Shown piece after piece: positions 6,626 to 64,000 of a DNA stretch of 64,000 bases. Positions within the stretch are counted from its first letter, which is position 1. Each line of letters opens with the position of its first letter. The stretch lies in contig CASFFX010000006.1 of assembly GCA_949294085.1 (NCBI GenBank), positions 40,256-104,255 on the forward strand. Reading direction: 5' to 3'. A model generated the notes under the pieces. That model was not told where the DNA came from. It did not search any database and worked only from the letters and a program-made list of their open reading frames with translations. A program made the translations under genes and the position numbers. The stretch is from an uncultured bacterium. GTDB lineage: Bacteria > Elusimicrobiota > Elusimicrobia > Elusimicrobiales > Elusimicrobiaceae.

Positions 6626-7048
6626 ATGTCGTCGCAAGGGGCTGGCCTGCTGGAGCGCGTGAAACATTTTTTTGATTTGGAAGCCCGCCGCCGCGAAAAA
6701 TACCAACGCTGGGACCGCTTGGCGGAAAACGGGGACGAAGAAGCACGCTACCGGCTGTTAATGCTGTACCGGGAAGAAGGCGAAGAATTTTGGCCGTTGG
6801 CTTTTAAGTGGACGGTGGCGGTGGCCAATGTGGGCGAGGACTGCGGTGTAACGCTGCAGGCGGCCGAAATGTACGCCGCCGGGCACGGATGCCCCCAAAA
6901 CGAAGAAAAGGCTCTCTTGTGGTTTGAACGCACCCTCAGCCTGCATATTATGCAGGGGCCCCACTCTCCCCTGACGCTGGACGCCGCCAATTACGTCCAG
7001 GAACAAATCCAGGAACTGCGCCGCAAACTGGGCCGGGATAACGCCTGA
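6626..7048 (+). CDS. Sel1-like repeat protein
   Basis: AENGDEEARYRL and AAEMYAAGHGCPQNEEKALLWF Sel1 patterns; AGGAG RBS upstream. Confidence 0.75.
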   Translation: MSSQGAGLLERVKHFFDLEARRREKYQRWDRLAENGDEEARYRLLMLYREEGEEFWPLAFKWTVAVANVGEDCGVTLQAAEMYAAGHGCPQNEEKALLWFERTLSLHIMQGPHSPLTLDAANYVQEQIQELRRKLGRDNA

Positions 7049-7171
7049 TTGGTTCCGTCCGCTTCTACTAACCCTTTTCTCTTCATGACGAACTGCGCCG
7101 CTTAAGGTACAATACCCTAAATTCTTTTGAGGCCGCAAGGTGCGGCCATATCTGCATACAAGGAGGCAGCC

Positions 7172-7960: not shown

Positions 7961-8035
7961 CTGCGCCGGCAGACTTGAATTTTAACGCAAAGACTCGTAA
8001 ATTAACTATAACCCAACGCAGGAAAAGGAGCATCT

Positions 8036-8785: not shown

Positions 8786-8798
8786 GGAAGAACAAAAC

Positions 8799-8828
8799 AT
8801 CCCCGGTCTTAAACGACCGGGGATTTTT
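8799..8828. terminator. Terminator between the convergent OMP gene and tRNA
   Basis: ATCCCCGGTC-TTAAAC-GACCGGGGAT followed by TTTT; A run on the other side. Confidence 0.85.
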
Positions 8829-8833
8829 GTAAA

Positions 8834-8908
8834 TGGTGCGCTCGGCGGGAGTCGAACCCACATTTCCAGCTTCGGAGGCTGACGCTCTATCCATTGAACT
8901 ACGAGCGC
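8834..8908 (-). tRNA. tRNA-Arg (anticodon CCG)
   Basis: Minus strand GCGCTCGTAGTTCAATGGATAGAGCGTCAGCCTCCGAAGCTGGAAATGTGGGTTCGACTCCCGCCGAGCGCACCA: 7-bp acceptor stem, CT-CCG-AA loop, GTTCGA T-loop, encoded CCA. Confidence 0.95.
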
Positions 8909-8951
8909 GCAAAAGGGCTTCTTTTATTTTATCAAAATTCGGCGCGTTCGA

Positions 8952-15020: not shown

Positions 15021-15752
15021 ATGAAAAAGACGATTGCGATTGTGGTGGTTGTGTTGTTGCTGCTGGTGGCGGCGGGACTGTTGTTTTTCCGGCATACGCC
15101 GTTTGCTTACAGCGGGGTGGTGGAAGCGGTGGAAGTGGACGTGCCGAGCCGCTTGTCCGACACGCTGACCGAAATTAACGTGCAGGAAGGAAGCCCCGTG
15201 CAAAAAGGCGAAGTCTTGGCTCGCTTGGATTGCCGCGATACGCGCCTGAAAGCCGCCATTGCACAAAAAGAATTCAAACGGGCCGAAACGCTGTTGAAAA
15301 CGACGGCCGGCTCGCGGGAAAATTACGATTTGAAAAAACATCAAAACGACCAGGCCGCTTTGTATGAAAGCTGGTGCGATATTACCAGCCCCATCAGCGG
15401 GAAAGTGCTTTATAAGTATTACGAGCCGGGGGAATTTATTGCCGCCGGGCGCAAATTGCTGACCGTGGCCGATTTAAGCGAAGTGGACGTGTGGGTGTAT
15501 GTGGAGCACGACTTGCTGGCCCGCTTGGCGGTGGGGGGCAAAGTGAAAGGCTTTTTGCCCGAAACGGACCAAACCTTTGACGGCGAAATTTTAAGCATTA
15601 ACGAAGAGGCCGAGTTTACCCCCAAAAATGTACAAACCCGCCGGGAACGCGAACGGCTGGTGTACGGCGTAAAAACCCGCTTTCACAACGACGCCGCCCG
15701 GACGCTGAAATCCGGCATGACGATAGAAGTAACGTTTGAGGGGGTAAAATAA
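15021..15752 (+). CDS. Periplasmic adaptor (HlyD/YbhG-like), short hairpin
   Basis: N-terminal TM, lipoyl motif VQEGSPVQKGEVLARLD, ITSPISG, AEFTPKNVQT..ER..LVY typical of YbhG. Confidence 0.85.
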   Translation: MKKTIAIVVVVLLLLVAAGLLFFRHTPFAYSGVVEAVEVDVPSRLSDTLTEINVQEGSPVQKGEVLARLDCRDTRLKAAIAQKEFKRAETLLKTTAGSRENYDLKKHQNDQAALYESWCDITSPISGKVLYKYYEPGEFIAAGRKLLTVADLSEVDVWVYVEHDLLARLAVGGKVKGFLPETDQTFDGEILSINEEAEFTPKNVQTRRERERLVYGVKTRFHNDAARTLKSGMTIEVTFEGVK

Positions 15753-15753
15753 A

Positions 15754-16479
15754 ATGCCCGCTTTGCGCGCGCAAGTGCGTGGCGTAAGCAAGAAAATGGG
15801 CCGCGCCCAAGCCCTCAGACAGGTGGATGCGCTGTTTGACGCGGGGAAAGTGCATGGCATTATCGGCCCGAACGGAGCGGGAAAAACGACCCTCATCCGC
15901 CTGTTGGCCGGGTTGCTCCATCCCGATACGGGCAGCGTGTCGTACTCGGAAGGCGGACAGAAATTTTCTTCGGCACAGGCCAAACGGGTAACGGGGTATT
16001 TCCCGCAGGAGCCCAGCCTGTATCCGGATTTAACGTGTGAGGAACATTTGGAATTTTTCCGTGATCTCTACGCCCTGCCGCAGGAAGAATTTGAGCCGCG
16101 CGCCCGCGAACTGCTGCAGGCAACGGGGATGGAACCGTTTAAGGACCGGGCGGCGGGAAAGCTGTCCGGCGGGATGTACAAAAAACTGGGGCTGATGTGT
16201 GTGCTGTTAAACCGGCCCAAGCTTTTGTTGCTGGACGAACCGACCGTGGGGGTGGACCCCGTCAGCCGGCAGGAATTGTGGGATTTGGTGTATGGCTTTG
16301 CCGGAGAAAATATGACGGTGGTGGTAAGTACGTCGTATATGGACGAAGCCGGCCGCTGCGCCCAGGTGCATGTGCTTAGCGACGGGCAGATGTTGGCTTC
16401 CGGCGCCCCACAGGCGGTAATGCGGCAGTTTGGCGTGAACGATTTTGCGGAGATTTTTTTGAATCATGAACGAAAATGA
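15754..16479 (+). CDS. ABC transporter ATP-binding protein (YbhF N-half-like)
   Basis: GPNGAGKTT, LSGGM, LLLLDEPTVGVDP, STSYMDEA. Confidence 0.88.
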   Translation: MPALRAQVRGVSKKMGRAQALRQVDALFDAGKVHGIIGPNGAGKTTLIRLLAGLLHPDTGSVSYSEGGQKFSSAQAKRVTGYFPQEPSLYPDLTCEEHLEFFRDLYALPQEEFEPRARELLQATGMEPFKDRAAGKLSGGMYKKLGLMCVLLNRPKLLLLDEPTVGVDPVSRQELWDLVYGFAGENMTVVVSTSYMDEAGRCAQVHVLSDGQMLASGAPQAVMRQFGVNDFAEIFLNHERK

Positions 16480-17392
16480 AACGGTAATCCGCGTGAAAGA
16501 TTTGGTGGTGGCGTTTGGCTCGTTCCATGCGGTGGACGGCGTGTCGTTTGACGTGCACCGGGGCGAAATTTTTGGCTTTTTAGGGGCCAACGGCGCCGGG
16601 AAAACCACCACCATACGCACGATTTGCGGGCTGTTGAATCCGTCGGCGGGGACGGTGGAGGTAAACGGGCACGATGTGTCGTCCTCTACGGCGGTGCTCA
16701 AGCCGCTGATCGGCTATATGTCCCAAAAATTTACGCTCTACCCCGATTTAACCGTGCGCGAAAATATGAACTTTGCCGGGAGCCTCTACGGCATGAGCCC
16801 CCGGCAAATTGCCGCCCGTGCGCACAAGCTGATGGAATTTATCGGATTGCCGGAAAATATACCGGATCCGGTCAGTCATCTGTCGGGCGGGGTCAAGCAG
16901 ATGGCGGCGTTGGCCTCGGCCCTGCTGCACGACCCGGAACTGGTGTTTTTGGACGAACCTACCGCCGGCACTTCGCCGCAGACGCGTGTGGCTTTTTGGG
17001 CGCTGATTCGCCGCCTGGCCCAGTTGGGCAAAACGGTGTTTGTTACCACCCATTATATGGACGAAGCCGAATACTGCGGAAGAATTGCCCTGATGGAACG
17101 CGGAAAAATTGTGGCGATGGGAACGCCGGAAGAACTGAAGAAAGAATTCTTCCCCGTAAAACCGCTGGAACTGACTTTTTTGCACCCGGTGCAAAATGCC
17201 TTGCGTGCCGCGTTGGCGCAGGCGGGCATTGCGTCGGCCGTGTTTGGCAACAACCTGCGGGTGCGCGCGCCGGACCGGGCCGCCTTTGAACGGGCCACCG
17301 CCCCGTTTCGGAACGATTTTACCGTCTGCGAGACGAACCCGACGCTGGAGGACGTATTTCTGCAAGCCGTAAGCGGGAGGAAAAAAGCATGA
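16466..17392 (+). CDS. ABC transporter ATP-binding protein (YbhF C-half-like)
   Basis: GANGAGKTT, YMSQKFTLY, LSGG, FLDEPTAG, TTHYMDEAEYC, C-terminal PTLEDVF. Confidence 0.9.
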   Translation: MNENETVIRVKDLVVAFGSFHAVDGVSFDVHRGEIFGFLGANGAGKTTTIRTICGLLNPSAGTVEVNGHDVSSSTAVLKPLIGYMSQKFTLYPDLTVRENMNFAGSLYGMSPRQIAARAHKLMEFIGLPENIPDPVSHLSGGVKQMAALASALLHDPELVFLDEPTAGTSPQTRVAFWALIRRLAQLGKTVFVTTHYMDEAEYCGRIALMERGKIVAMGTPEELKKEFFPVKPLELTFLHPVQNALRAALAQAGIASAVFGNNLRVRAPDRAAFERATAPFRNDFTVCETNPTLEDVFLQAVSGRKKA

Positions 17393-18534
17393 TGTTTTCC
17401 TGGCGCCGCGCGCGCAGCGTGGCTTACAAAGAATACAAACACATCTTGCGGGACCCGTTTACCCTGATTGTTACGCTGGTGCTGCCGCTGGTGTTTGTGG
17501 GCATGTTTGGCTTTGTGATTGATTTGGACTACAAACACATGCGCGTGTACGTGCGCGATAACGACCAAACGAGTGTTTCGCGGCGGTTTTTGCAAGAGGT
17601 GGCTTCTTCGGGTTATTTTAATTTAACGCCCGTGCACGGCCAGTTTCAGCTGGACCAAGCCCTCCAACGCAACGACAGCCCCGCCCTGATGGTCATTCGC
17701 AGCGGCTTTGGCCGCCGGGTGCGGGCCGCCAACCCCGGCGAACCCGGCCAAATCCAGCTGTTGGCGGACGGAACCGACAACGTGCAAGCCAGCATTATGG
17801 GCACGTATCTGCAGGGGGCCGTGCAGAAAGCCAATGCCGTTTTCGCGCGCGATAACCCCGAACTGGCGGACGCAGCCGCCCAAGCGGGCGAACAGGTGCG
17901 CAGCCGATTTTTGTTCAATCCGGAGCTGAACAGCCGCTGGTTTATCGTGCCGGCGTTGAGTACCATCATCATTGGGTTTTTGGCCATCGTGCTGACCGCG
18001 CTGACCGTGGCCAAAGAGTGGGAAAACGGCTCTATGGAGCTGTTGCTTTCCACCCCGGTTCGCCCGGCGGAAATTGTGCTGGGGAAACTGGTGCCGTATT
18101 TTTTGCTGACCTTTTTTGACGTACTGGTGGTGTTTGTGCTGGCGGTGTATGTGTTTCGTATCCCGTTTTTGGGGAGTTTTATTTTCTATATGGCGGCGTG
18201 CTGGGTGTACATCACCGGGGCGCTGGCGCTGGGGCTGGTGATTTCGGTGGTAACGCGCCAGCAGCAGGCGGCAATCCAATTTGCTTTTGCGGTGGGGCTG
18301 CTGCCTTCCTTCATTTTTTCCGGGTTCATTTTCCCGATAGAAAACATGCCGCTGTTTTTCCGTTATTTTACGGCGCTGTTTCCGCAGCGGTGGTTTTTGT
18401 TGATTAGCCGCACAGTCTTTTTGAGCGATGCCGCCCCCGCTACGCTGGCGACGGCTTTTGGCGCGATTGTGCTGTTTGCGGCCGCGATGATTGTGCTGGC
18501 CGTACAAAAATTCAAAACGGACGTGGAACCATGA
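17389..18534 (+). CDS. ABC-2 type permease (YbhS-like)
   Basis: KEYKHILRDP, FLFNPELNSRWFIVP, ALTVAKEWENGSMELLLSTP. Confidence 0.9.
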   Translation: MMFSWRRARSVAYKEYKHILRDPFTLIVTLVLPLVFVGMFGFVIDLDYKHMRVYVRDNDQTSVSRRFLQEVASSGYFNLTPVHGQFQLDQALQRNDSPALMVIRSGFGRRVRAANPGEPGQIQLLADGTDNVQASIMGTYLQGAVQKANAVFARDNPELADAAAQAGEQVRSRFLFNPELNSRWFIVPALSTIIIGFLAIVLTALTVAKEWENGSMELLLSTPVRPAEIVLGKLVPYFLLTFFDVLVVFVLAVYVFRIPFLGSFIFYMAACWVYITGALALGLVISVVTRQQQAAIQFAFAVGLLPSFIFSGFIFPIENMPLFFRYFTALFPQRWFLLISRTVFLSDAAPATLATAFGAIVLFAAAMIVLAVQKFKTDVEP

Positions 18535-19646
18535 AATTGCGTGCGCGAACTTTGAAAGGTTTTTTTGTAAAAGAAATTATCCAAATTATGCGGGATCCCA
18601 AAATGATTTTGGCTATTTTCTTTATTCCCATTGTGCAGACGGTGATGTTCGGCCTGGCGCTGACCAGCGAAGTAAAAAACATCAAATTTGTGGTGGCTTC
18701 CAAGCCGGGCAAAATTGCCCAAGAGCTGGAAAGCCGGGCGTTGGCCTCGGGCTGGTTTTCCCGGGTGGAGGGCATCAACGGCGCCCAGGTGGAAGACCCC
18801 GAAGCGCTGGTGGCCTCGCACCGGGCCGAAGCGGTGCTGGTGGCCCCGCCTGAAGGATTTGAAAAAGCGCTGGAGCGCGGCAACGAGCCCATCCAGCTGC
18901 TGCTTAACGCCACCAACGCCCAGCGCGCCCAGCAAGTGAACGGATACGTCCAGCAAATTGTGGCCGAAGTCGCCCGGGATAATGGCTACGACGTCAACGG
19001 CGGCCTGATTGAGTTGGATATGCGCGTGCTTTTTAACCACTACATGGACACGACGTCTTTTATGATTCCGGCGCTGTTGGTTATGTCCACCTTTATCGTG
19101 TTGTTGGTGGTGGGCGGGATGGCCATTGCCAAGGAAAAGGAAACCGGCACGCTGGAAAAGCTGATTGTGTCCCCCTGCAGCGTGGAAGAAATTATGCTGG
19201 GCAAAACATTGCCGTATTTCGTCATCGGGCTGTGCATTGTGGGGCTGATTTTGTTTATTGGCGTAGCGGGATTTGGCATCCCGTTTAGGGGCAGTTTGTG
19301 GCAGGTGGGCGTGAACTCGGTGCTGTTTGCCGTGTCCGCCTTGGCGTGTGCGCTGTTAATCAGTACCGTGGTGCATACCCAGCAACAGGCGATGATGGCC
19401 AGCGTGCTGTATTTGATGCCGGCTATCTTGCTTTCGGGCGTATTTTTCCCGGTGCCCAATATTCCGCCGCTGTTTCGGTGGATGTGCTATTTGAACCCGA
19501 TGATGTATTCCGTCCTCAATTTCCGCGCCATTATTCTGAAAGGGGGCGATGCGTCCTTCTTTTGGCAGAATTGCTTGTGCCTGGCGGCCATGTCCGTCGT
19601 GCTGTGCGCGGCCGCGTACAAAAATTTCAAATCCAAACTCAACTAA
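18531..19646 (+). CDS. ABC-2 type permease (YbhR-like)
   Basis: KEIIQIMRDP, IAKEKETGTLEKLIVSP, LLSGVFFPV. Confidence 0.9.
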   Translation: MKLRARTLKGFFVKEIIQIMRDPKMILAIFFIPIVQTVMFGLALTSEVKNIKFVVASKPGKIAQELESRALASGWFSRVEGINGAQVEDPEALVASHRAEAVLVAPPEGFEKALERGNEPIQLLLNATNAQRAQQVNGYVQQIVAEVARDNGYDVNGGLIELDMRVLFNHYMDTTSFMIPALLVMSTFIVLLVVGGMAIAKEKETGTLEKLIVSPCSVEEIMLGKTLPYFVIGLCIVGLILFIGVAGFGIPFRGSLWQVGVNSVLFAVSALACALLISTVVHTQQQAMMASVLYLMPAILLSGVFFPVPNIPPLFRWMCYLNPMMYSVLNFRAIILKGGDASFFWQNCLCLAAMSVVLCAAAYKNFKSKLN

Positions 19647-41957: not shown

Positions 41958-44261
41958 ATGGCAGAAGAAAAAGAACCCCAAAAATCCGAAGCAAAAATCA
42001 TCGCTTTTGCGGGCCCGAAGGAAGGCGCCGGCAAGACGACGCTGGTGCTGAACCTGGCCTTGGGCTGGGCGGGCATACAAAAGCGCCCGGTGCTGATTGT
42101 GCCGCTGGATCCATTGGCCCGGCAGGAGCATAGCTTTTATCTGGACATTAAAAAGCCGGTCAGCGTGTCGGATATTTTACAAACGCTGGGCAACACCTCT
42201 ATTGCCGTGGTGGGGGGGCTTTTGCGCGGAAAGATTTCCATGTCTCAATGGGGGGTGGGCGTATTGCCGTTGGGCAATACCCGGGCGCAGGTGGCGGCCA
42301 TCAGCCCCAAAATTCTGATTCCTATTTTGTCGCGTTTATCCCAAACGTTTGACATCTTTTTGGACGTAGATTCCAGCTTCCCGATGCAGGCGTTTTCGTT
42401 TGACATCGCCGATAAAATCTTTTGGGTGTGCCAAGCTACGCGCACGCACTTAAACTCTACCGTACAGCTTTTTAACGATTATAAAGAACAACGCTATCCG
42501 ATGGACCGCGTCAGCGTGATTTGCAACGCGTACGATACGCCCGGCTCTATTCCGTATGAAGAAGTGGAACGCTTCTTTTCTTCGCTGGGGCGCGAGATAG
42601 ACGTGTTTTTGCCCTGGGACGAGGACGTGATGGCTACGTCCAACCGCAAAGAGGTGGAAATTATTACCAACCCGCAGTCCGAGTGGGTTAAAGGCCTGCG
42701 CCTGGTGTTGGCCAAAATCCGCGATTTGCAAACGGCGCCGAAGGATTGGGTGGCGTCGGTTTCGGACGAAGAATTTACCCAAGCCGCCAAAGAAATTTGG
42801 ACGCCGGTCCTGTTTGACGACGGCAAAACGACCGTGGCGGAAAGCCACGTGGCCGAGGAAGAAGAAGGCGGCAAAACCAAGCTGTCTTTTTGGGACGATT
42901 TGAAACAGAAAATCCACAAAGAAGTGGTGCATACGCTGGAAATTGAACACATTGTGGTAAGCGATGAAAGCTCCGCCAGCGCGCAAACGCGCAAGCGGGT
43001 GGCGGCCATCGTGGACGATATCCTGCAAAAACAGCCGAATTTGCAGTTCTCGCGGGAACAGCGCACGCGTTTCTCGTCTGAATTGTTGGACGAAATTTTG
43101 GGCTTGGGGCCGCTGGAAGTATTGATGCGCGACCCGGCCGTTACCGAAATCATGGTCAACGCCTTTGACAAAATTTTTATTGAACAAAAAGGTAAGTTGA
43201 CGTTAACCAAATACAAATTCCGCAATAACGACCAAGTGGTGCAGGTCATTAAACGCATCGTAGCGCCGCTGGGCCGCCGTATTGACGAATCCGTCCCGCT
43301 GGTGGACGCCCGCTTGAAAGACGGGTCCCGTGTAAACGCCATTATCGCGCCGCTGGCCGTATCCGGCCCGACGCTGACGATCCGCCGTTTCTCGCAAAAA
43401 CCGTTCGGCCCGGAAGATTACTACCGCTTCGGTACCATCAGCCCGGAATGTATGGCTTTTATTGAAAAATGCGTCCGTATCCGCAAGAACATCATCGTCT
43501 GCGGTGGTACGGGTACCGGTAAAACGACTTTTTTGAACGCGATTTCCGGCTATATTTCCCACGATGAACGTATCATTACCGTGGAAGACACCGCGGAATT
43601 GCGCTTGCAGCAGCCGCACTGGGTGTCGCTGGAAAGCCGTCCGCCAAACGTGGAAGGCAAAGGCGCGGTAACGATTCAGGACTTGGTAAAGAACTGCTTG
43701 CGCATGCGTCCCGACCGCATTGTGGTAGGGGAGTGCCGCGGCGGCGAAGCGCTGGACATGTTGCAGGCTATGAACACCGGGCACGAAGGTTCGCTGACCA
43801 CGATTCACGCCAACACGCCGCGCGACGGGCTGTCCCGCTTGGAAGCGATGTGCATGCAAACTGGGGTGGATTTGCCGGTGTATGTAATTCGCGAAATGAT
43901 TTCTTCCGCCGTGAACTTGATTGTGCAGCTGTCCCGTTTTTCGGACGGGTCCAGAAAGGTAACGTATATTACCGAAATGCACGGACAAAAAGACGGCGAA
44001 ATTCAATCCACGGATTTGTTCCGCTATGTGCAAACGGGCGTGGACGAAAACGGCAAAGTGCAGGGCGTTTTTGCGCCGACGGGCGAACTGCCCACGTTCT
44101 TTGACGAATTCCAGTCCAAAGGGCAGCCGGTGGATAAAAATATTTTCTTTCACAATGCCGTCCCGCTGGACGCAAACGGCGAACCGGATAAACAGGCCGT
44201 ACAGCGCTTGCTGCACGCGCAGGAAAAACCGCTCCCGCCTGCTCCGCCGGCGGCCCATTAA
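41958..44261 (+). CDS. tadA: Fused TadZ/CpaE (MinD/ParA-like) and TadA/CpaF ATPase
   Basis: N-half deviant P-loop [10 protein letters not shown]; C-half [59 protein letters not shown]. Confidence 0.9.
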
Positions 44262-54520: not shown

Positions 54521-54697
54521 ATGCACGCAAAAAGGCCGGCGGCCGGGCGCAATGCTCCCACCGCGGGGCAGGCTACCATTGAATATGTGCTGATGCTTGC
54601 CACGATTGTGGTGGTGCTGTCGGCCTTTTTGACGGCTTTTCACACCGATATTGTGCGCTTTTTCTTCACGTTTATCGGGCAGCTGCTTTCTTCGTAA
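54521..54697 (+). CDS. flp: Flp-type pilin (58 aa, absent from ORF track)
   Basis: MHAKRPAAGRNAPTAG|QATIEYVLMLATIVVVLSAFLTAF...; TAA 54695-54697. Confidence 0.72.
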   Translation: MHAKRPAAGRNAPTAGQATIEYVLMLATIVVVLSAFLTAFHTDIVRFFFTFIGQLLSS

Positions 54698-54700
54698 ACT

Positions 54701-55813
54701 ATGCACAGGATGAGGCCTATTTTCCGAAAATTGCAAGACCGACAGGCGCAAGTGTTGCTGCCTGCGGTTTTGTTGGCGCCTATTTTTGTGCTGGTTATCT
54801 ACCTGTTGTTTGAAACGGCCAAAGTGTCCATGACCAAGGTCCGCCAGCAGTTTGCGCTGGACAATGCAGCCTACTCCCAGTTGTCCTCGACGAGTACGTA
54901 CCTCAACGCGGTGGCCATGGTCAACGGGCCGCTGCCTTACCGCGTGATGCTGTATTACAAGGACCAAAAGTTGAACCCTACCGAGGTGGCCGCGGCTTCC
55001 GGCAAACAGCCCATCAGCATTTTTGAGCTTTTTTATCACGGCGGCGGTGTGCCGTCTATTGGGCCGGATTACGATACGGGGATTAATAATCCTCCGCCGG
55101 CGGCTTCGCAGGACTGGGGTCTGCATTATGACCCGAATAACCAGGAATTTCCACGCGGCGATTGGGAAAAAGAACAGCCGCGCGAGCCGGATTCCGAAAC
55201 GTGGGTGCCGGTGATGAGCAAATCGTTGGTCAACGATTATTATTTCCCGGCGCTTCGCTATGGAACGGTGGTGATTCAAAACTATTTGGAAACGTATGTG
55301 CGCACGGGGTCTATTTATGAATCTCAGACGTATGCTTACCAGGCCACCAGCAAAAACGCCATTATGTTCCGCGAGGCATATTATTTGAATACGAACGATT
55401 GTAAAAAGTCGGACTGCGCGCGGCAAAGCGCTTCGCAACTGCAGCGATATCTTACTTTGTCCACCAAACCGTTTGAACTGGATAAAGTGCGGTTTTATGC
55501 GTCCGATTCCGGCTTAAGCGGCGAACACGGCGGTGCTATTAACTTGGATTTGTCGATGGTGGAAATGATTAAAACCAAGCTTTTCCAATTTGCTTATCTG
55601 GATTCCAGCTCCCGCAACAAATTGCGCACGCTGGGGCGCGGCGTCGTGCTTAAACAGCCGTTCAAACTGCCGCGGAACCATTTTAATATCAGTTTGGAAC
55701 AAAAATATAAACCCTATGTGCGCAATACGGCGGTGCTTTCCTGCCCGCGCGGCAGCAACAACTGCGTGTGGCCGGACCCGCTGCCCAAATACAGCGTAAC
55801 GTTGGACCCGTAA
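54701..55813 (+). CDS. TadG-like large minor pilin / tip protein
   Basis: RKLQDRQA|QVLLPAVLLAPIFVLVIYLLFETAKV...QQFALDNAAYS matches the Tad N-terminal motif; large C-terminal globular domain. Confidence 0.65.
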   Translation: MHRMRPIFRKLQDRQAQVLLPAVLLAPIFVLVIYLLFETAKVSMTKVRQQFALDNAAYSQLSSTSTYLNAVAMVNGPLPYRVMLYYKDQKLNPTEVAAASGKQPISIFELFYHGGGVPSIGPDYDTGINNPPPAASQDWGLHYDPNNQEFPRGDWEKEQPREPDSETWVPVMSKSLVNDYYFPALRYGTVVIQNYLETYVRTGSIYESQTYAYQATSKNAIMFREAYYLNTNDCKKSDCARQSASQLQRYLTLSTKPFELDKVRFYASDSGLSGEHGGAINLDLSMVEMIKTKLFQFAYLDSSSRNKLRTLGRGVVLKQPFKLPRNHFNISLEQKYKPYVRNTAVLSCPRGSNNCVWPDPLPKYSVTLDP

Positions 55814-56358
55814 TGATGAGAAAACTGTTTCCTTTTCACTCCAAGCAAGGCCAAGCCACGACGGAAGTCGTGTTGCTGTTCCCGCTGTTTGTCATTTTTA
55901 TTTTGTTTATTATCAAAATTTTCGGGTTGCTGATTTTAAGCCAAAAAATGGAAATTGCCGGCTATTATGCGGCCCGGCGCTTTCAGCTGCAGTCCCACGT
56001 AACGGATTATTATGCCAACACCTGGGATAGGCGCTTTTTGAAAAAGGACATCCAGGAAAAAGTGGAAAGCTACCTGGGGTTTGATAACCCGGGCATGCGC
56101 AAGTTTTTGAATTTAAGTGAATTAAAGATGGATATTCAAACTTCCGGCACGTGGGTAAAAGTGGTGCTGACGGCCCACACCCGCCCGCCGCGGATTCGTT
56201 TTCTGTGCAATTACAACAAGGACCAGGTGTGCGACCGCGACGATAAATGCCTGAAAGGGTACGCCTTCCTGTGCGAGACGGGCGGCCAGGTGGAAGTCAT
56301 CAAATACGTGGGCCATAATGAACGCCCCTCACCTTACCAGCGGCCGGAAGGCACGTAA
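55813..56358 (+). CDS. tadE: TadE/TadF-like pseudopilin
   Basis: HSKQG|QATTEVVLLFPLFVIFILFII...AGYYAARR; ATG overlaps the upstream TAA. Confidence 0.8.
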   Translation: MMRKLFPFHSKQGQATTEVVLLFPLFVIFILFIIKIFGLLILSQKMEIAGYYAARRFQLQSHVTDYYANTWDRRFLKKDIQEKVESYLGFDNPGMRKFLNLSELKMDIQTSGTWVKVVLTAHTRPPRIRFLCNYNKDQVCDRDDKCLKGYAFLCETGGQVEVIKYVGHNERPSPYQRPEGT

Positions 56359-56372
56359 GGGGGGAACTTCTC

Positions 56373-56401
56373 TTGACAAAGGGGTGTTTTCTACCTATAC
56401 T
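56373..56401 (+). promoter_or_regulatory. sigma70-type promoter of the paralog array
   Basis: TTGACA (56373-56378), 17 bp, TATACT (56396-56401). Confidence 0.8.
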
Positions 56402-56494: not shown

Positions 56495-58222
56495 ATGTTT
56501 AAGCTGAAACCGGGAAATGTGTTTCAAAAAATCAATAAAATGGACCGCAAGCAAGCCTATACCTTGGGGGCAATTGTGGTGGTGTGCTTTGTGGCTCTGT
56601 TAACGCTGGCTTCGTTTTTGGGCAATGCGGAAGACTCGTCTTTTGAAGATTTTAATACCCGCGGCTACGATTTGGCGCAAATGCCGTTTGTAAACGACGA
56701 GGCGGAGCAGTATTTGCTGGCGTCTAAATATCCGGATATGCAGGGCAATAATTCCACCATGCTCTATTCCGCGGCCGACAAGCAGGCCCGCCAACAGGAA
56801 GATTCCGCCCAAGCGGCCGAAGAAGCCGCCGAAGAAGCAACCGAGGCGGGCGCAACGGACGATACGTATTACGGCGGCGGATACAGCGGGGGCGGTTATA
56901 CGGGCGGCGGTACGCCGCGCGCGCCCACGCAGGTGGGACAGCTGAGCAGTGCCAGCATGAGCCGTTCCGGCGGAAGCGGCGTAAACACTTCGTGGGGGGC
57001 TCCCCGCGGGGATTTTTCGCCGTATAAAAGCCAGGAAAAGGGCTCCGAAATTCCCACTCAAACGCAACTGCGCAATCAGGACGCGCGCCGTGCCTTGGCG
57101 CAGTTTGCGCAAGCCAGCCGTGCGGCGGCCGGATTGAAAGACGGCAAAGGCGCCAACGCCAAAAGAGCGTTGATGGGCGCCAATGTGCGCGGCAGCGAGG
57201 CGTTTACGGACTCCGGCGTGGATTTGAGCAAAACGGCCGGCCTGACGCTGGACACCAATGCCCCGGTTTCCACGGCGGATTTGGGCAATTTGGACAAGGC
57301 CGTGTCGGACGCGGCGGCCGCTGGAAAATCCAATAAAGACAAAGCGCAGGAAAACTACCGCCAAAGCATGGAAGAACGAATCCGCGAGCAGTTGTTTAGC
57401 GGGATGATTAATATGGGGCTGCAGGCGATGGGCAATTTGTTAAACCAGGGGGTCAGCGCGCTGCAGGGAACCATTGCCGGCAATCAGGCCCTGAATAACA
57501 GCTTGGAAAGTTCCGGCGCGCAATTGGCCGATGCCCAACTGACCAACGCCAATAAAGATTTGTTAGTTGCCCAATATGGGCAGGATAAGGTGGACGCGTG
57601 GATGGCCCAAAACCCGAACGGGCGCGTGTGGCAATGCCAGGCCGATTTGTCCGGCTCGGGCACGACGGGCGGAACCATTAGCCCGGTTCCCACCAAGCCG
57701 GAGATGCCCCAGCAGAGCGCGTTTGTTTCCCAATCGGGCTCCAGCAACGAGGGCGGCGTAGTTACCTTGGGCGCGCAGGATCAGGCCCGCTACGACATGG
57801 CGATGGAGGAATACAACCGTCAAAATGAAGCGTATAATGCGTATCAAAACGCTTCGGACGAAGAAAAACTGCAAATCCGCACCGACCGTATGGAGGCCAA
57901 TATCCAGGCGCAGAAGCAGGCCGTTAAATCGTTTAGCGACCAGTATGTGCGGTATCAAAAAGCGCACAAAACGGGCGCGGCGTGGGAAAGCGCCGTGGCC
58001 GCCAAAAACGTGGCGCGGACGGCCTATACGGGCAAATCGGTGATTGATACAACGAAACTTACGACGAAAAAAAATACGTCCTCTGCTCCAACGGGCGGTG
58101 CCTCAACCACGTACAAAACACCCAATGATTTCCATACGCACACGCAGTATGAGGATTACGTAAAAGGCTTGAATGTGGGTGAAAAGGAAGAAAAAAGTTT
58201 GCTTAACATCCAGAGTTTATAG
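56495..58222 (+). CDS. Membrane-anchored low-complexity hypothetical protein (array member 1)
   Basis: N-terminal TM (AYTLGAIVVVCFVALLTLASFL), Gly/Ser/Ala-rich linker, LSSASMSRSGG motif; GAGGGG RBS. Confidence 0.8.
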   Translation: MFKLKPGNVFQKINKMDRKQAYTLGAIVVVCFVALLTLASFLGNAEDSSFEDFNTRGYDLAQMPFVNDEAEQYLLASKYPDMQGNNSTMLYSAADKQARQQEDSAQAAEEAAEEATEAGATDDTYYGGGYSGGGYTGGGTPRAPTQVGQLSSASMSRSGGSGVNTSWGAPRGDFSPYKSQEKGSEIPTQTQLRNQDARRALAQFAQASRAAAGLKDGKGANAKRALMGANVRGSEAFTDSGVDLSKTAGLTLDTNAPVSTADLGNLDKAVSDAAAAGKSNKDKAQENYRQSMEERIREQLFSGMINMGLQAMGNLLNQGVSALQGTIAGNQALNNSLESSGAQLADAQLTNANKDLLVAQYGQDKVDAWMAQNPNGRVWQCQADLSGSGTTGGTISPVPTKPEMPQQSAFVSQSGSSNEGGVVTLGAQDQARYDMAMEEYNRQNEAYNAYQNASDEEKLQIRTDRMEANIQAQKQAVKSFSDQYVRYQKAHKTGAAWESAVAAKNVARTAYTGKSVIDTTKLTTKKNTSSAPTGGASTTYKTPNDFHTHTQYEDYVKGLNVGEKEEKSLLNIQSL

Positions 58223-58245: not shown

Positions 58246-59832
58246 ATGAAAATTTTGAAGCGGTGGCTGAACCGAAGCGGCAAAATTGCCCTCTCCGCGG
58301 CGCAAGCGGTGGGGCTTTCGGCCGTAGTCGGGGTGGCGGGCATTGCCGCTTGGCAATATCTGGACACTCCTTCCGATAATACGGCTTTCAACCTGGGTTC
58401 CAACTATGACCGGGGGGAAGTGGTGTACGTAACGGGCGCTTCGGGCGGCTCGTACGGCGCCAACGGGGAAGTGCAATCCGCTTTTATGGCAAAGCCCTCT
58501 AAAGCCATAGAAATGACGGAAAAATTTGCTTTGGCTCAAAAACGGGCGGACGAGTACGACGATTCCGTCGTGATCCCCGCACCGGAGCCTTCCAGCCCGC
58601 AGGCCTATCAAATGGGCGGCACCGAAGGGTTAGGCATGGGCGCCAACCGAGCCAACGAAGAAAAATGGAACCAAAATCCGATGGCGGCGGCCCAGCAGAC
58701 CCTGACGGGTGTTACGGACGCCATTGCCCGCGCCCAGCAACAGGCCCAACAGCAAGCCCAGCAACAAAGGGCGGCCCAGGGCCAGGCGGGAGCGGCAGGC
58801 ACATTGGCCAGCGCCCAGCGCGATTGGAGTTCTTCGGCCGCCACGAAAGGACTTTCCGGCGGCGGCGGAAATGCGTTTAATTCCTCTTTCGTAGTGCAGA
58901 ACAGCCAAAAAGGCGGCAAAGGCGCCGCGACGGGAAATGCTCCGTCCGATCCGGCTGCCGTAATGAAACAATTTCAACAGCAGGTGGCTTCCGCCCAGGA
59001 AGGCGCCCGCTTGCGTGCCCGTGCCACATTTGGGGCGGAAAATGAGCTTTTGGCCAGCCGTTCGTCAGAATTGGGCAACGCTCGCACTTCGCGGGAAGGA
59101 AAAGATTTGGAATTTATCCGCAAACGCTCGGCCGATGCCGCCAAAAACAAAAACCGCTCGGCCAACGAAGGCGCCCGTGCCTTTTTGGCCAGCACGAAGG
59201 TATCGGGCGGTATTACGGTAACGGGGGACAATGTTACCACCGGCCAGGGCCAGGCTTCTAAGGATTTTGAATCGGCCACGCAGTCCCAGTTGCGAGGCAT
59301 ACAGTCGTACGTGCAGGGGGATATGGAGGAAGAAGCCCTCACCCGCAAACGCGACAGAGACGCTATCCGTACTTGGATGTGGGTTGCAATTCCGACGGCT
59401 TTGGCGGCGATGGTCTCTATTCCGATTGCCATTGCTTCGGCGGGCTGGTTCTTTGGCGTGGGATACGCCTTGGCGGCCGCTATTGCGGCGGTGGCGTTAG
59501 TCCCGGTCTTGGGGCTGCTGTCTGTTAGTGTTAAGTACGCCAATAACTACGGGGGATCGTCTCTTTCCACGTGGGGTTCTGTCATTGCCGGTATTTTGAC
59601 CGTTGGGCTGGGGCTTGCCTTTATCCCCGGGGCTGGTTTTACCGCCAAGCTGGCTACGTGGGCCCAATTGTTGGTGGGCGGTGCGGCAGCGGGCTTGGGC
59701 GCTGGGGCCGCGTGGTGGGCTACGTCCGCCACGAAGGACGCTACACTGGATCAAGCCGCTTCCTTGAATATTGACAACGGCACCGATACGCAGGGCAAGG
59801 GTGCGTCCGGCAGTCAGGGACAGACGAAATAG
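58246..59832 (+). CDS. Hypothetical protein with prepilin-like N-terminus and hydrophobic C-terminal domain (array member 2)
   Basis: RWLNRSG|KIALSAAQ leader, GLGMGANR, KRSADAAKNKNRSANEGARAFLAS, 3-4 Gly/Ala-rich hydrophobic helices; AGGAGG RBS. Confidence 0.8.
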   Translation: MKILKRWLNRSGKIALSAAQAVGLSAVVGVAGIAAWQYLDTPSDNTAFNLGSNYDRGEVVYVTGASGGSYGANGEVQSAFMAKPSKAIEMTEKFALAQKRADEYDDSVVIPAPEPSSPQAYQMGGTEGLGMGANRANEEKWNQNPMAAAQQTLTGVTDAIARAQQQAQQQAQQQRAAQGQAGAAGTLASAQRDWSSSAATKGLSGGGGNAFNSSFVVQNSQKGGKGAATGNAPSDPAAVMKQFQQQVASAQEGARLRARATFGAENELLASRSSELGNARTSREGKDLEFIRKRSADAAKNKNRSANEGARAFLASTKVSGGITVTGDNVTTGQGQASKDFESATQSQLRGIQSYVQGDMEEEALTRKRDRDAIRTWMWVAIPTALAAMVSIPIAIASAGWFFGVGYALAAAIAAVALVPVLGLLSVSVKYANNYGGSSLSTWGSVIAGILTVGLGLAFIPGAGFTAKLATWAQLLVGGAAAGLGAGAAWWATSATKDATLDQAASLNIDNGTDTQGKGASGSQGQTK

Positions 59833-59840
59833 GAGCTTTT

Positions 59841-60122
59841 ATGGCAGAACAAAAACAACAAACGGCGGCTCCTGTTCAGGTATCCCGTAAAGTAGTGCTG
59901 ATAGCCCGAACAGTTTTGGCCGTGATTGTGGTCATTTGGATAGCGGGAATATTTTATTTTCACTCCCAAATGAAAGCCACGGAACAGGAAATTTTGAAGC
60001 TGCGCCAAAGACGCCAGCAAGAGGAAGAACTCCAGCGGCGGGAAGCTATTTACCGCCGGGCCGCCATGCAGCAAACGGCGGTGCAAAACGGCGTACAGAA
60101 TGCGGTGGACGCGTTGAAGTAA
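59841..60122 (+). CDS. Small single-TM coiled-coil hypothetical protein
   Basis: TM VLAVIVVIWIAGIFYF followed by a charged helix; AGGAG RBS. Confidence 0.7.
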   Translation: MAEQKQQTAAPVQVSRKVVLIARTVLAVIVVIWIAGIFYFHSQMKATEQEILKLRQRRQQEEELQRREAIYRRAAMQQTAVQNGVQNAVDALK

Positions 60123-60141
60123 AAACGCAGGGAGAAAACGT

Positions 60142-61635
60142 ATGAATTGGGTCAAATTATTAAAGAACATATCGGGTAAACTCGTCATGGGCGTTCCCCA
60201 ATTGTTAACCATCGGCGGCGTGGGTATGCTGGCCATTTACGGCGCATACCGCACCGATGACGCTTTGGCCAGCAAGGAACCGCCTGTGCGCACGCTGTCG
60301 GGCATTTCTGCTTCTTCGGCCTATCAGGGCTTGCAGAAAAAAGACGGCTTGCTTACGTCCATTAACATCAAAGATTCCCTCAACCAAATCGCCACGCCGG
60401 AAGAGCGGGCCGCGTTGGACGGCAATTCCCCGTCGGCCGACAACTTTGGCTTGGATAAAGTGGGCAATATTCAAAATGTTTCGTTTGGTGCGGCGGCGGA
60501 AACGTCTCCCACCGACGGTTTGGGCATGGGTGCCAACCGGACGGACATTACGGAAGGGGGCTCTTCTAGCGTACGCGGTGCCGGCAGTCAGCCGGGCGTA
60601 ACGCTGCCGGGCAATTTGGGGCAGGCGGGTGCCGCCGCTTCCGGCTCAACTGCCACGCTGGCGCCGGCTTCTATGGCGCGGGCGTCCGGCAATGCGTTTA
60701 ATGCCGCGGCCGGGGCCATTGGCGGATCGGCTGCCGGCGGAGCCGGTACCCGTTCGGCCGCCAGCAGTGCAGCCGCGGGCGGATCTGCTGCCAGCGGGGA
60801 AGGCTATCAATTTTCGGGCGCGATGCCCAGCGGAAGCAACATGGTGTCTGCCTTTCAGTCTCGGCGTGCCAATTCCACTTTTGTAGCGGGCGGGCGCGAT
60901 TCTTCTTCGGCCCGGGCCAGACGTTCGTTCCGCGAGAAAAATGAGTTAAAAGACATTTCCAAACGCTCGGCCGACGCCGCGCGGAACCAAAATCGTTCCG
61001 CCAACGAAGGCGCCCGCGCTTTTTTGGCCAGCACCCGCAATTCGGGCGGCTTGCGCGTGGAGGGCGGCGTGGAAACGACCAGCACCGGCTCGGCTGATTT
61101 TGAAAATCCGACCAACCAAAAGCTCAAAGCCGTTGGAAGCTGGGTCCAGCAAGAGGACGAGTTTGCCAAGAAACAAGAAAAAGCGCGCAAACGCTTGATG
61201 TGGATGGCGTTGTCGCTCTTTGCATTGACGATTGGCATGATCCCCGCGGTATATCATTTGGTGTCTAAGGGAAAACAAGCGGGTCTGTTTGGATGGACTT
61301 TTGTTGCGTGGGGTATCATCTTGGCTGGTGTAGTGGGTGCTTATGCCGCTACGGTGTTGGGCTTTGCGGTGGATTACCAAACGAAGTATAACGGCAATTT
61401 CTTGCCGATTATGGGCTACCTCCTTTCTGCAGGCTCGATGGTGGCGATGGCGTGGACGGTCCTGTCTGCCTTGAAGTCGGGCGGAACCTCTTCAGAGGCG
61501 CATAAGTTGTTTATGAAGAAATCGGTTGGTGCCGCGAAGAGTGTGGGTATGATGGGCCTGACGACCGGCGGGAAAGAGGCGGTCAATAAATTAATGGAAA
61601 AAGACGCTTCTGCTTCCCAATCTTCTAAGAAATAA
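60142..61635 (+). CDS. Paralog of 58246-59832 (array member 3)
   Basis: LLKNISG|KLVMGVPQ leader, GLGMGANR, KRSADAARNQNRSANEGARAFLAS, divergent hydrophobic C-terminus. Confidence 0.8.
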   Translation: MNWVKLLKNISGKLVMGVPQLLTIGGVGMLAIYGAYRTDDALASKEPPVRTLSGISASSAYQGLQKKDGLLTSINIKDSLNQIATPEERAALDGNSPSADNFGLDKVGNIQNVSFGAAAETSPTDGLGMGANRTDITEGGSSSVRGAGSQPGVTLPGNLGQAGAAASGSTATLAPASMARASGNAFNAAAGAIGGSAAGGAGTRSAASSAAAGGSAASGEGYQFSGAMPSGSNMVSAFQSRRANSTFVAGGRDSSSARARRSFREKNELKDISKRSADAARNQNRSANEGARAFLASTRNSGGLRVEGGVETTSTGSADFENPTNQKLKAVGSWVQQEDEFAKKQEKARKRLMWMALSLFALTIGMIPAVYHLVSKGKQAGLFGWTFVAWGIILAGVVGAYAATVLGFAVDYQTKYNGNFLPIMGYLLSAGSMVAMAWTVLSALKSGGTSSEAHKLFMKKSVGAAKSVGMMGLTTGGKEAVNKLMEKDASASQSSKK

Positions 61636-61686: not shown

Positions 61687-63213
61687 ATGAAAGAACCGAA
61701 AGAACAGCCACAGCCGGAAGAGCAAAAACCTTGGGTGTTGCTCTGGCAAGAAATCAAACGTTTGTCCTGCTCCAAAAAAGCGTGGGCGGCGGCGGTGGTG
61801 TGCGTGCTGCTTTTGTTGTTTACGGGCGTGGTGCCGGTGGGAAAAATTCCGCTTTTGCGCCGTTTGGCGTGGGCTATGGGATACACGCCGGACGAAACGC
61901 AACATATTTCCTTCTTAAAAGCCTTGCTTAGCTGGAACGAGCATGCCAAAATTATGCGTGGGGAACTGCCGGACCCCAACGAAACAAGCATATTTGGAAA
62001 CGATGGGGGGCTGATGTCCTCGCAGAAGCGGCTGGAGCGCGAAAAAGATTCCAGCTTGATTAATATGCGGGCCGTCAATGCCGCATTGTACAAGCAAGGC
62101 AAACTGGGCGATTTGCCCACGGGCGCTTATTATACGGTGGATATTGGAGAAGGGAAAAAACCGTCCGACGTACAGGTAACCGGCAATTCCGTAACGACGC
62201 AGGCCGGGGCCGCCAAAACGGGCGAGGTGTATTTCGGGACAGACGCTTCCGTCCAGGCGCGGGACCCGAAAGACGGATTTAATTCTATTGGGGCGCTTAA
62301 AAAAATTGCCAATCCGCACATCGCGGGCACATCCAAAACAGATTGGCTGGACCGTTTGGTGGATAAGGCCACCCGTTCCGATGCCGGCTTGGAAAACATT
62401 GCCAAAGAACTAAAAACCGGCAGTATGCTTTCGCAGTTAAATCCCATTACGGATATCGGCAATCACAAGGCCCAGCGCGATATGTATTATGCGTGGCTGA
62501 CGGGGATGAGTTCCCGCCGTACGCCCAATGTCGTGCTGAAAAAAACCTTGGCGGCGGCCGGTTTTAACGGGGCGGAAATGCCCAAAAAAGTGTTTGATTC
62601 TTCCGGGTTTTCGGGTATTGGCATTAATCAAGATGATGTTGTTTCCGACGTGGAAAATATTCAAATCCGGCTGAAAAATGAAAAAGAGTGCGAACGCGTT
62701 TTGAGTACATCGGGCGAAAATTTGGTCAACCAGCTGCAAGCGGCCAAAGAAGGCATTAATGTGTTGTCGGCTTCGTTTCCCAAAACGTGTGATGACATCA
62801 ACGGAAATTTTACAAACCGCTTGGCGGCTTTGCGGAATCAATGCGAACAAATTAAGCTGGACTATAATGACTTGGGCACTTTTTGCGGCGTTACCGTAAA
62901 AGCCGGGCGGGAAGGCACCTGCACGACCAACAATCTGCAGAGCCGCTACGACCAATATGCCGCCTATTGTACCCAAGAAAGGCAAAAATGCGCCGCTTTA
63001 ACTACACCCGAAGAGCAGCAGGCCTGCCTGGCCGGATTGAAAAAAGCCGCCGATTACGAAGAAGGCGACTGCCGGGAAAAAGGCTGCTCGCAGGAAGGGG
63101 TGGAAAAATTAGTGGGCGGAACCTTTAACGTGGGCGTAAACGGCAAGGACGTGGACCCGTACGCGGGGGACTTCTTTCCGGAAGTGGATTGGGGGGCTAC
63201 CAAGCTCTACTGA
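61687..63213 (+). CDS. Membrane-anchored hypothetical protein with Cys-rich C-terminus (array member 4)
   Basis: TM AWAAAVVCVLLLLFTGVV; 10 Cys in the last ~180 aa. Confidence 0.8.
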   Translation: MKEPKEQPQPEEQKPWVLLWQEIKRLSCSKKAWAAAVVCVLLLLFTGVVPVGKIPLLRRLAWAMGYTPDETQHISFLKALLSWNEHAKIMRGELPDPNETSIFGNDGGLMSSQKRLEREKDSSLINMRAVNAALYKQGKLGDLPTGAYYTVDIGEGKKPSDVQVTGNSVTTQAGAAKTGEVYFGTDASVQARDPKDGFNSIGALKKIANPHIAGTSKTDWLDRLVDKATRSDAGLENIAKELKTGSMLSQLNPITDIGNHKAQRDMYYAWLTGMSSRRTPNVVLKKTLAAAGFNGAEMPKKVFDSSGFSGIGINQDDVVSDVENIQIRLKNEKECERVLSTSGENLVNQLQAAKEGINVLSASFPKTCDDINGNFTNRLAALRNQCEQIKLDYNDLGTFCGVTVKAGREGTCTTNNLQSRYDQYAAYCTQERQKCAALTTPEEQQACLAGLKKAADYEEGDCREKGCSQEGVEKLVGGTFNVGVNGKDVDPYAGDFFPEVDWGATKLY

Positions 63214-63217
63214 CCCC

Positions 63218-63245
63218 TTGAAAAAAGCGCATTTAATTGTATAAT
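63218..63245 (+). promoter_or_regulatory. Putative sigma70 promoter
   Basis: TTGAAA, 16 bp, TATAAT (63240-63245). Confidence 0.6.
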
Positions 63246-63422: not shown

Positions 63423-64000
63423 ATGCCAGAGGAAAAAAAGAAGGACAGTTTTACCTTTAGCGATAAGATTAAAAACAGCAAGCCTGCTGCTTTTAAGTCT
63501 TTTGCTAATCGTATTTCCTCCAAAATCGGGAGCGACGGCAAACCTAGAAAGACTCTCTTTGAGAGAACGAAAAGGGATGCCCCGTTCTTCATTGCCGCTT
63601 TGGTGGCGCTGTTGCTGCTGCCGTTTTTGTATAAATACAGCGGGCAAGTAAATGAAGAACCTATGGTTACCCCCGGAAGCGAGGAATCCATATTCGATCC
63701 CGAACGGTACGGTTTTGATACGGCTACCGGGGATCCGGAAGGCCAAATTGCTCAGCTGGCCGGGCGCGATCCTTTAAGCTTGATTAAAGGGTTGAACTCG
63801 GAGGAAGAAGAGCCGTCGGGCGATTATCCGATGCAGGATTTTGATGATCGCAGCGGCTTGGGCGATGACGCTTCTTATTCCGACAATGTAACGGAAGAAC
63901 ACAACACCAATATCTACAAGCAAAACGCGGCTCCGGCCACGCGCGCGGCGTTCCGCCGGGCGGCTACCAAGATTAATCCGTTGGCTTCGGCCGGGCTTAC
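63423..64000 (+). CDS. Partial CDS (5' end), membrane-anchored hypothetical protein (array member 5)
   Basis: AGGAGG RBS, ATG 63423, open to the window end: MPEEKKKDSFTFSDKIK...APFFIAALVALLLLPFLYKY...TKINPLASAGL. Confidence 0.8.
   Translation, partial: MPEEKKKDSFTFSDKIKNSKPAAFKSFANRISSKIGSDGKPRKTLFERTKRDAPFFIAALVALLLLPFLYKYSGQVNEEPMVTPGSEESIFDPERYGFDTATGDPEGQIAQLAGRDPLSLIKGLNSEEEEPSGDYPMQDFDDRSGLGDDASYSDNVTEEHNTNIYKQNAAPATRAAFRRAATKINPLASAGL

Follow-up and report, generated by a model that had tools for sequence, protein, structure and literature searches.

Tad pili are widespread colonisation organelles and, to our knowledge, little is known about their lineage-specific customisation besides the recently described variable minor-pilin tips. 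Variable parts within conserved genes are also found in the polymorphic toxins (CdiA-CT/CdiI, Rhs, and the pore-forming colicins with their membrane immunity proteins) and at specificity loci with hypervariable membrane domains, such as agrB-D-C and the comQXP pherotypes, IdsD/IdsE of Proteus, and the TraG/TraS or TraG/Eex entry exclusion systems. Myxococcus kills on contact by means of Tad-type pili whose tips are variable (PMC12075869). The subject of the present analysis is a pair of paralogous genes, D and F, located downstream of a Tad locus in a 64,000-nucleotide (nt) stretch of an uncultured Elusimicrobiaceae genome (contig CASFFX010000006.1, positions 40,256 to 104,255; hereafter the window, whose own numbering is used throughout). 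By the names of the homologue matches, the genus is ‘Candidatus Avelusimicrobium’, an uncultured gut lineage. The reading preferred here, held with about even confidence, is that D and F are lineage-restricted inner-membrane proteins of an envelope module, forming strain-variable membrane bundles, and are neither pilins nor classical polymorphic toxins. That their tails are swapped between strains suggests a function in the envelope that is specific to the strain; a toxin is not proven.

Gene D (58246..59832, + strand) encodes 528 amino acids (aa), with orthologs at 87-99% coverage, and its paralog F (60142..61635, +) encodes 497 aa with an identical architecture, its orthologs covering 100% of the query. 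In the gene call of the protein collection (P0121, 482 aa), F begins at Met16, i.e. at 60187; position 60142 is the likely start, because the orthologs span the whole 497-aa open reading frame (ORF) and conserve its first 15 residues. The paralogy of the two genes, proposed in the original prediction from the sequence of the window, was borne out by BLASTP (E = 7e-26, 39% identity across 203 aa around the core). The motifs it had listed were likewise found and are conserved at the DNA level: GLGMGANR at 58627-58650 in D and 60517-60540 in F, with 20/24 nt identical, and the 24-aa stretch KRSADAA(K/R)N(K/Q)NRSANEGARAFLAS at 59122-59193 and 60961-61032, with 61/72 nt identical. The basic patches, RKRDR from D aa 367 and KARKR from F aa 347, are also present, both placed just before the first C-terminal hydrophobic helix, as are the Gly/Ala-rich C-terminal hydrophobic helices, of which each protein has three. 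The hydrophobic segments lie at aa 14-32, 378-396, 409-427 and 446-464 in D, and at aa 14-32, 352-370, 392-410 and 423-441 in F. An 86-aa core is 55% identical between D and F, and no similarity was detectable between their C-terminal (CT) modules within the window’s genome (tblastn E 1.5-3); the layout of a conserved core and a divergent tail is therefore real.

The first 36 residues of D (58246..58353, +) comprise a basic leader (MKILKRWLNRSGK) and the first transmembrane (TM) segment, TM1, and form the most conserved block of the module, with a mean pairwise identity of 0.67-0.81. A mostly disordered loop of about 340 aa follows, in which short motifs are strongly conserved in D and F (GLGMGAN, LASAS, GNAFN, KRSADAA..NR.ANEGARAFLAS and GSxDF). 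The S-x-D-F motif of D (59257..59268, +, aa 338-341), with S338 invariant and D340 and F341 at least 90% conserved in the D-family alignment, lies at the border between the conserved part and the hypervariable module D-CT (59269..59832, +), which consists of a charged helix, TM2-TM4 and a tail. The hypervariable module of F, F-CT (61102..61635, +), starts after SADF at aa 317-320.

Neither D nor F has a current annotation. A profile search over 1.84 billion representative proteins matched 223 representative clusters; nearly all of the 150 clusters listed are about 430-570 aa long and match over their full length, a few shorter ones matching part of the profile, so that among them the conserved N-terminal part (NT) is not seen fused to other domains. 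All 40 searched genomes of the window’s genus contain exactly two adjacent copies, and the sister genus has a single diverged copy at the same operon position. The sampling of other Elusimicrobiota families yielded nothing beyond one marginal match. D and F thus appear to represent an orphan family of about 500 aa, found only in Elusimicrobiaceae. In one locus of the sister genus (L012, genome G006, 6970-9569) there are two tandem genes of 443 and 339 aa resembling gene C, the upstream neighbour of D, and one D/F-like gene; the window’s genus, by comparison, has a single C and two D/F paralogs, so that expansion of the module has taken different courses in the two genera. Pfam, NCBIfam and PADLOC scans covering D, F and the adjacent genes returned nothing meaningful for D/F, a profile search against PDB sequences gave zero matches at E <= 1, and no literature on these proteins was found.

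The N-termini of D and F had been read as prepilin-like leaders cleaved at SG|K. Both proteins do have a short basic leader with Gly as its last residue and a hydrophobic helix immediately behind it: MKILKRWLNRSG|K (RSG|K) in D and MNWVKLLKNISG|K (ISG|K) in F, with Q as residue 20 in each. Conservation is much stronger than chance would give: in each family alignment (18-20 sequences) G12 never varies and K13 is at least 90% conserved; in the D-family alignment with F included, K13, S17 and Q20 each reach at least 90% conservation. Among 350 family members, 268 carry [AST]GK before the first hydrophobic helix. On this basis D and F could be atypical minor pilins, cleaved after G12 by the single prepilin peptidase (one Peptidase_A24 gene was found in the genome) and built into the Flp filament at its tip or base. 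The invariant terminal Gly of the leader, the helix behind it and the encoded peptidase speak for this, as does the N-terminal segment of D being its most conserved part, a pilin-like trait; certain tip pilins also lack E5. The details of the site argue otherwise: position +1 is Lys, and at position +5 D has S17 and F has G17, with no Glu, whereas all five Flp/TadE-type proteins of the window show G|Q.T.E[YLV] at the cleavage site. The sister genus has the leader MK.ILN.IGAVSKP, with Ser at position 12, and the Gly is not kept. The pilin, TadE, N_methyl and Class_III models of Pfam did not match D or F (E <= 0.1) or 36 family members (E <= 0.01), and NCBIfam gave no match to D or F. Structure models built with AlphaFold2 (AF2) contain only helices and disorder, and the pilin fold, i.e. 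alpha1 plus a globular beta domain with a single TM, is not seen in them. Furthermore, three additional TM helices would prevent extraction out of the membrane, and TM1 of F co-varies with the C-terminal helices of F. The prepilin reading thus fails most tests; it is not supported that D and F are pilins, and their being minor pilins is considered very unlikely.

Compared with the Tad/Flp accessory and minor-pilin tip genes (TadE/TadF/TadG and the Myxococcus KilL/M/N; PMC12075869), D and F share a position downstream of the Tad core and beside Flp, TadG-like and TadE-like genes, an N-terminal hydrophobic membrane anchor preceded by a basic leader, and distal parts that vary between paralogous or allelic sets. 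They differ in having no sequence or fold homology to these proteins, no E5, no G|Q.T.E site and no beta-rich pilin domain, and in carrying three extra C-terminal TM helices. Their variable part is predicted to be membrane-embedded and is not an exposed globular tip domain, and their unit has its own promoter-like site and is separable from Tad. No Pfam or NCBIfam match related D or F to TadB/C/D/G/Z or RcpA/B/C.

The distribution of charges over 246 family members bears on the topology. The excess of Lys and Arg over Asp and Glu is +3.0 at the N-terminus (on average 3.2 K+R and 0.16 D+E), -0.85 after TM1, +1.6 in the loop between TM2 and TM3, and +1.5 after TM4. Since this bias fits a four-TM topology with both termini inside, a large periplasmic loop and an uncleaved signal-anchor, D and F are predicted to be integral inner-membrane proteins. 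Two other explanations of the N-terminus were considered and rejected: a lipoprotein, for which there is no lipobox Cys, and a cleaved Sec signal peptide, which conflicts with the co-variation of F TM1 and F-CT. The predicted arrangement (TM1, a large periplasmic loop, TM2-TM4, both termini inside) resembles the FtsX/MacB/LolC permeases. In contrast to these, D and F have no match to an FtsX-domain model, their loop is mostly disordered instead of forming a folded Porter or Sabre domain, and the module contains no partner ABC ATPase. AF2 runs with 36 and 119 sequences gave a mean predicted local distance difference test (pLDDT) of 54 and 58; the models are confident only for the C-terminal helical bundle at aa 360-460 (pLDDT 85-95), and the predicted periplasmic region is not folded in them. 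Six distant family members (P0317, P0331, P0348, P0355, P0364 and P0365) keep the leader, TM1 and core and have a soluble C-terminus without TM helices. They carry an F(R/D)xxWG motif, seemingly equivalent to the TM3-TM4 loop of D/F.

The C-termini had also been predicted to be polymorphic, which the comparison of strains confirmed, with CT modules only 25-50% identical in near-identical strains. Three strain pairs, picked because their D-CT differed, are 94-100% identical across the operon and drop to about 50% nt identity in discrete blocks. The diverged blocks are the 3' parts of C, D and F together with the 5' end of F in the first pair (L018/L019), the 3' parts of C and D in the second (L020/L021), and only the 3' part of D and the 5' part of E, the small gene between D and F, in the third (L022/L023); in the pairs examined the neighbouring 8-10 kb stay 95-100% identical. 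At the protein level, D-CT identity is 44-52% where that of the upstream genes A, B and RRHK is 98-100%, and some pairs of proteins are 93-100% identical over the first ~340 aa and ~25% identical after, with the break directly after GSxDF. Whole blocks have been exchanged by recombination between otherwise near-identical strains. In the table of close strains, aa identities amount to 96-100% for A, B and RRHK and 88-100% for C_mid, D_TM1, D_mid and F_mid, and range over 26-99% for C_CT, 44-100% for D_CT, 41-98% for E_NT, 58-100% for F_TM1, 40-100% for F_CT and 78-99% for G, the gene following F. The hypervariable parts of the module are hence the membrane bundles of D and F, the TM segment of E, TM1 of F and the predicted periplasmic C-terminal domain of C, and the variable blocks assort independently.

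The same pattern (NT >= 85%, CT < 50%) occurs in at least 10 independent lineages and in both families. Clustering at 50% identity gives 89 CT clusters vs 40 NT clusters, and the mean identity across orthologs is lowest in the C-terminal region (0.32-0.36, vs 0.46-0.70 elsewhere except for the D pre-helix segment at 0.30). Protein P0010 is 94% identical to P0003 in the NT and 44% in the CT, the corresponding values for P0010 and P0008 being 73% and 75%; the CT types are incongruent with the NT backgrounds and common to different lineages. The imported tracts include conserved stretches at 85-91% identity, and the sharp edges are therefore partly the border between slowly and rapidly evolving segments. 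The CT outpaces the NT in evolution, along a continuum. Three mechanisms of diversification were rejected: (i) gene conversion from silent cassettes, as no extra CT-like sequence was found within the 64-kb window; (ii) mutagenesis of the diversity-generating retroelement type, as the blocks carry indels and ~50% nt identity and not adenine-only changes; (iii) recent transfer of identical CT cassettes into distant backgrounds, as no pair combined CT >= 80% with an NT at least 20 points lower.

All CT variants follow a common order, that is, charged helix, TM, TM, a loop with [YF]Axx[WYF]GG..[LM][SP][TI], TM and tail, and the loop motif [YF]Axx[WYF]GG is present in 246 of the 284 variants. As all of them keep one architecture, they are homologous alleles and not unrelated toxin domains.

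The coupling between blocks was assessed through partial correlations of identity values over 26-27 related loci. A partial-Mantel control on RRHK alone left phylogenetic signal everywhere, and relatedness was controlled through A+B+RRHK instead. The partial r of F_TM1 and F_CT is 0.69, whereas the intervening F_mid gives 0.12 with F_TM1 and 0.34 with F_CT. For D_CT and the N-terminal/TM half of E (E_NT) it is 0.63, and 0.58 after further control for D-mid and E-CT; the equally adjacent pair E_CT and F_TM1 gives 0.05. TM1 of D, with a mean identity of 0.77-0.81, does not co-vary with D-CT, and F_CT and G give r = 0.10. D-CT and the TM half of E were swapped together in L022/L023, and in two of the three strain pairs E remained 88-98% identical while D-CT switched. 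Overall, these coupling figures are suggestive.

According to the preferred reading, D and F would each be anchored by the uncleaved N-terminal signal-anchor with the N-terminus inside, the ~340-aa disordered stretch would loop into the periplasm, and the chain would re-enter the membrane as a three-helix bundle with its C-terminus inside. TM1 of F would pack on its own TM2-4, and the TM segment of E on TM2-4 of D, giving two four-helix membrane units with specific, co-evolving helix contacts; the co-variation of F TM1 and F-CT is as expected of one four-helix bundle in the producer’s membrane. The conserved leader and TM1 of D may be a docking element for a partner that is itself conserved, for which the Tad platform is a plausible candidate. 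The diversity of the blocks could be maintained by diversifying selection acting on an interaction at the envelope, for example the entry of phages or bacteriocins, or cell-cell recognition. The specificity loci mentioned at the outset resemble this arrangement in their discrete hypervariable blocks in conserved genes, the location of these on TM segments of adjacent genes, the co-variation of partners, and the allelic types found across lineages. The module differs from them in containing no kinase, peptide-precursor, type VI secretion or conjugation gene, and no homology was found.

The original prediction had likened the layout of D and F to that of polymorphic toxins and their C-terminal helices to pore-forming or translocator domains, and had proposed that both are built into the pilus and enter a target membrane for killing, fusion or attachment to host cells. 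In a narrower form of this idea D, and perhaps F, would be a contact-delivered membrane effector or identity determinant acting in the membrane of a neighbour, E would be the cognate protector or partner, comparable to a polymorphic toxin with its immunity protein or to self-recognition of the IdsD/IdsE type, and the Tad-type machine would provide contact or delivery. Part of the layout stands. As in CdiA-CT/CdiI, Rhs and the colicins, a conserved N-terminal part ends at a sharp, GSxDF-marked junction with a recombining variable module; the CT types are trans-specific; and a small TM protein gene lies directly after D, its TM half co-varying in part with D-CT. Synteny with the Tad and pilin genes and the contact killing by variable-tipped Tad-type pili in Myxococcus (PMC12075869) also favour it. 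The toxin domains themselves were not recovered: there is no sequence, HMM or fold match to any toxin or translocator domain, and a Foldseek search of PDB produced nothing at E <= 0.001, the top-ranking structures for the model (confident only at aa 360-460) being generic designed helical bundles. Unlike in polymorphic toxins, the CTs are all homologous with a conserved loop motif, no trafficking domain or orphan cassette was found in the window, and the copy number is fixed at two in every searched genome of the window’s genus. No immunity-like or other small gene follows F, and F_CT does not correlate with G. E does not always switch with D-CT, and the C-terminal part of E is itself conserved, which suggests a structural role. 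Four strongly hydrophobic helices together with the signal-anchor predict co-translational insertion into the producer’s own membrane, and the coupling of F TM1 to F-CT fits an intramolecular bundle. An effector role for D is accordingly regarded as rather unlikely, and strain-variable bundles in the producer’s own inner membrane are preferred.

D and F belong to a larger locus, and their position beside Tad genes was confirmed. The Tad locus of the window (~39.4-48.2 kb) contains two Flp pilins, TadE, RcpC, secretin, a TadZ-TadA fusion, TadB, TadC and a TPR protein. The fusion ORF (41958-44261, 767 aa) occurs in 61/61 searched Elusimicrobiaceae genomes, at full length unless cut by a contig end, and the fusion is thus a family-wide feature. 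A HAMP protein, a DsbA-like protein and a three-gene phosphorelay separate the Tad locus from an upstream pilin group (54521..56358, +), which comprises a third Flp-type pilin (54521-54697, +, TAG|QATIEY), the TadG-like gene A (54701-55813, +) and the TadE-like gene B (probable start 55813, to 56358, +, KQG|QATTEV), and includes a faint Class_IIIsignal match. The longest ORF of B (55768-56358) starts with a GTG at 55768 inside gene A; the ATG at 55813 is taken as the start because of the TadE-like leader (MMRKLFPFHSKQG|QATTEV) and the 181-aa orthologs. The overlap of this start with the stop of A suggests translational coupling. The order HK-RRHK-RR-Flp-A-B-C-D-E-F-G-H was found in 33/34 loci, and where one contig carries both tadA and D/F, the latter almost always lie on the tadA strand, ~15-17 kb downstream of that gene.

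The genes C-D-E-F-G are separated by gaps of only 8-51 nt. Sigma-70-like promoter matches (11/12 each) are located before C (56373..56401, +), in a gap of 137 nt, and before H (63218-63245); they fall in the only sizeable intergenic gaps, B to C and G to H. These features suggest that C-G and H are transcription units separate from the pilin genes. Gene C (56495..58222, +) encodes an N-terminally anchored protein of 575 aa whose N-terminal half is conserved and whose C-terminal domain is hypervariable. The C proteins are 477-575 aa long, and in near-identical strains their hypervariable C-terminal 200-290 aa switch independently of D and F; the tail ends in a Cys-rich knot in four related loci compared (L018-L021) and not in the window’s own C. 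A weak local motif, LxSASM..GG, was shared by C and D/F in hhalign (E 6.9e-5, probability 63%), and with a match of 24 columns C was not called a paralog of D/F. Gene E (59841..60122, +) codes for a small bitopic protein of 93 aa with an N-terminal TM segment and a coiled-coil tail ending in VQNAVDALK. It lies between D and F in 32/34 tabulated loci; in L001 the ORF filter listed none and the gene call has a 76-aa product there, and L039 stops before F. Gene G (61687..63213, +) encodes 508 aa, N-terminally anchored and with a Cys-rich C-terminal part, and differs between some strains (78-80% aa identity). Gene H (63423..64000, +) is cut by the end of the window; it is N-terminally anchored, with a length of ~1200-1400 aa in relatives, and its homolog search returned only unannotated Elusimicrobia proteins without Pfam domains. 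Many H homologs (~1200-1350 aa) align best over only ~39% of the query, at 55-82% identity, so that H may also be a conserved/variable mosaic. Between L018 (H at 15214-19077) and L019 a patch of ~150 nt in H shows 61% identity.

The exception to the gene order is genome G050 (locus L017, G050:C4, reverse strand), from one species of the genus, in which the block C-H is found on the other strand at a distance of 216 kb from tadA and adjoins KdsA/LptB-like genes, with no Flp, TadG-like, TadE-like or phosphorelay genes there. Alternatively, C-H could be a general envelope apparatus of Elusimicrobiaceae, e.g. for tethering or biogenesis, functionally unrelated to Tad, with membrane segments that vary simply as weakly constrained anchors and with diverged copies imported by frequent recombination between species. 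The relocation without pilin genes is in line with this, as are the module’s own promoter-like sites, the lack of homology to Tad parts, the faster evolution of CT than NT along a continuum, and the spread of imported tracts into conserved parts. Against it, the module directly follows the Flp, TadG-like and TadE-like genes in 33/34 loci, and in the pairs examined C-CT, D-CT, E-NT and F are where the replacements concentrate, with 95-100% identity maintained over the adjoining 8-10 kb. In addition, the specific coupling of TM1 with CT in F and of D_CT with E_NT argues for specific helix contacts, not mere anchors, and TM1 of D is the most conserved block of all. A general apparatus of this kind is likewise judged rather unlikely.

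Several observations weigh against strain-variable membrane bundles associated with Tad as well. Hypervariable segments buried in the inner membrane are hard to explain by exposure to external selection, and the RKRDR patch just before TM2 falls on the predicted periplasmic side, which is unusual. The C-terminal bundle is not indispensable to the family, since some distant members have no C-terminal TM segments. The link to Tad is one of synteny, because there is no homology to a known Tad component or characterised protein, and G050 demonstrates that the module can sit away from Tad. The selection of strain pairs by their differing D-CT also counts here, and the correlations were drawn from identity values of related loci with relatedness only partly controlled, so that physical linkage may add to the D_CT and E_NT coupling.

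D and F belong to the unit C-D-E-F-G, which has a promoter-like site of its own, as does H behind it, and which is normally situated downstream of the Tad/Flp genes and a dedicated phosphorelay. This orphan six-gene module beside Tad in uncultured gut Elusimicrobia carries cassette-like, independently assorting hypervariability, mainly on TM segments and with co-varying partner helices. Diversification of inner-membrane helices at the strain level is unusual. It points to one of two options: either a specific interaction at the membrane level on which diversifying selection acts (entry of phages or bacteriocins, recognition between cells), or an effector-partner pair of a new kind. It is predicted that D-CT pairs with E, that TM1 of F pairs with F-CT, and that GSxDF is the junction. 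In a further, unlikely reading, the variants of C-CT, D-CT (with E), F (TM1 and CT) and G would constitute a combinatorial, membrane-embedded system of strain identity or compatibility working with the Tad-type pilus; in one form of it, Elusimicrobia cells would recognise or antagonise one another on contact, with the D module as effector or ligand and E as its cognate partner. If true, this would be a polymorphic membrane-module system unlike the known toxin or pilin families.

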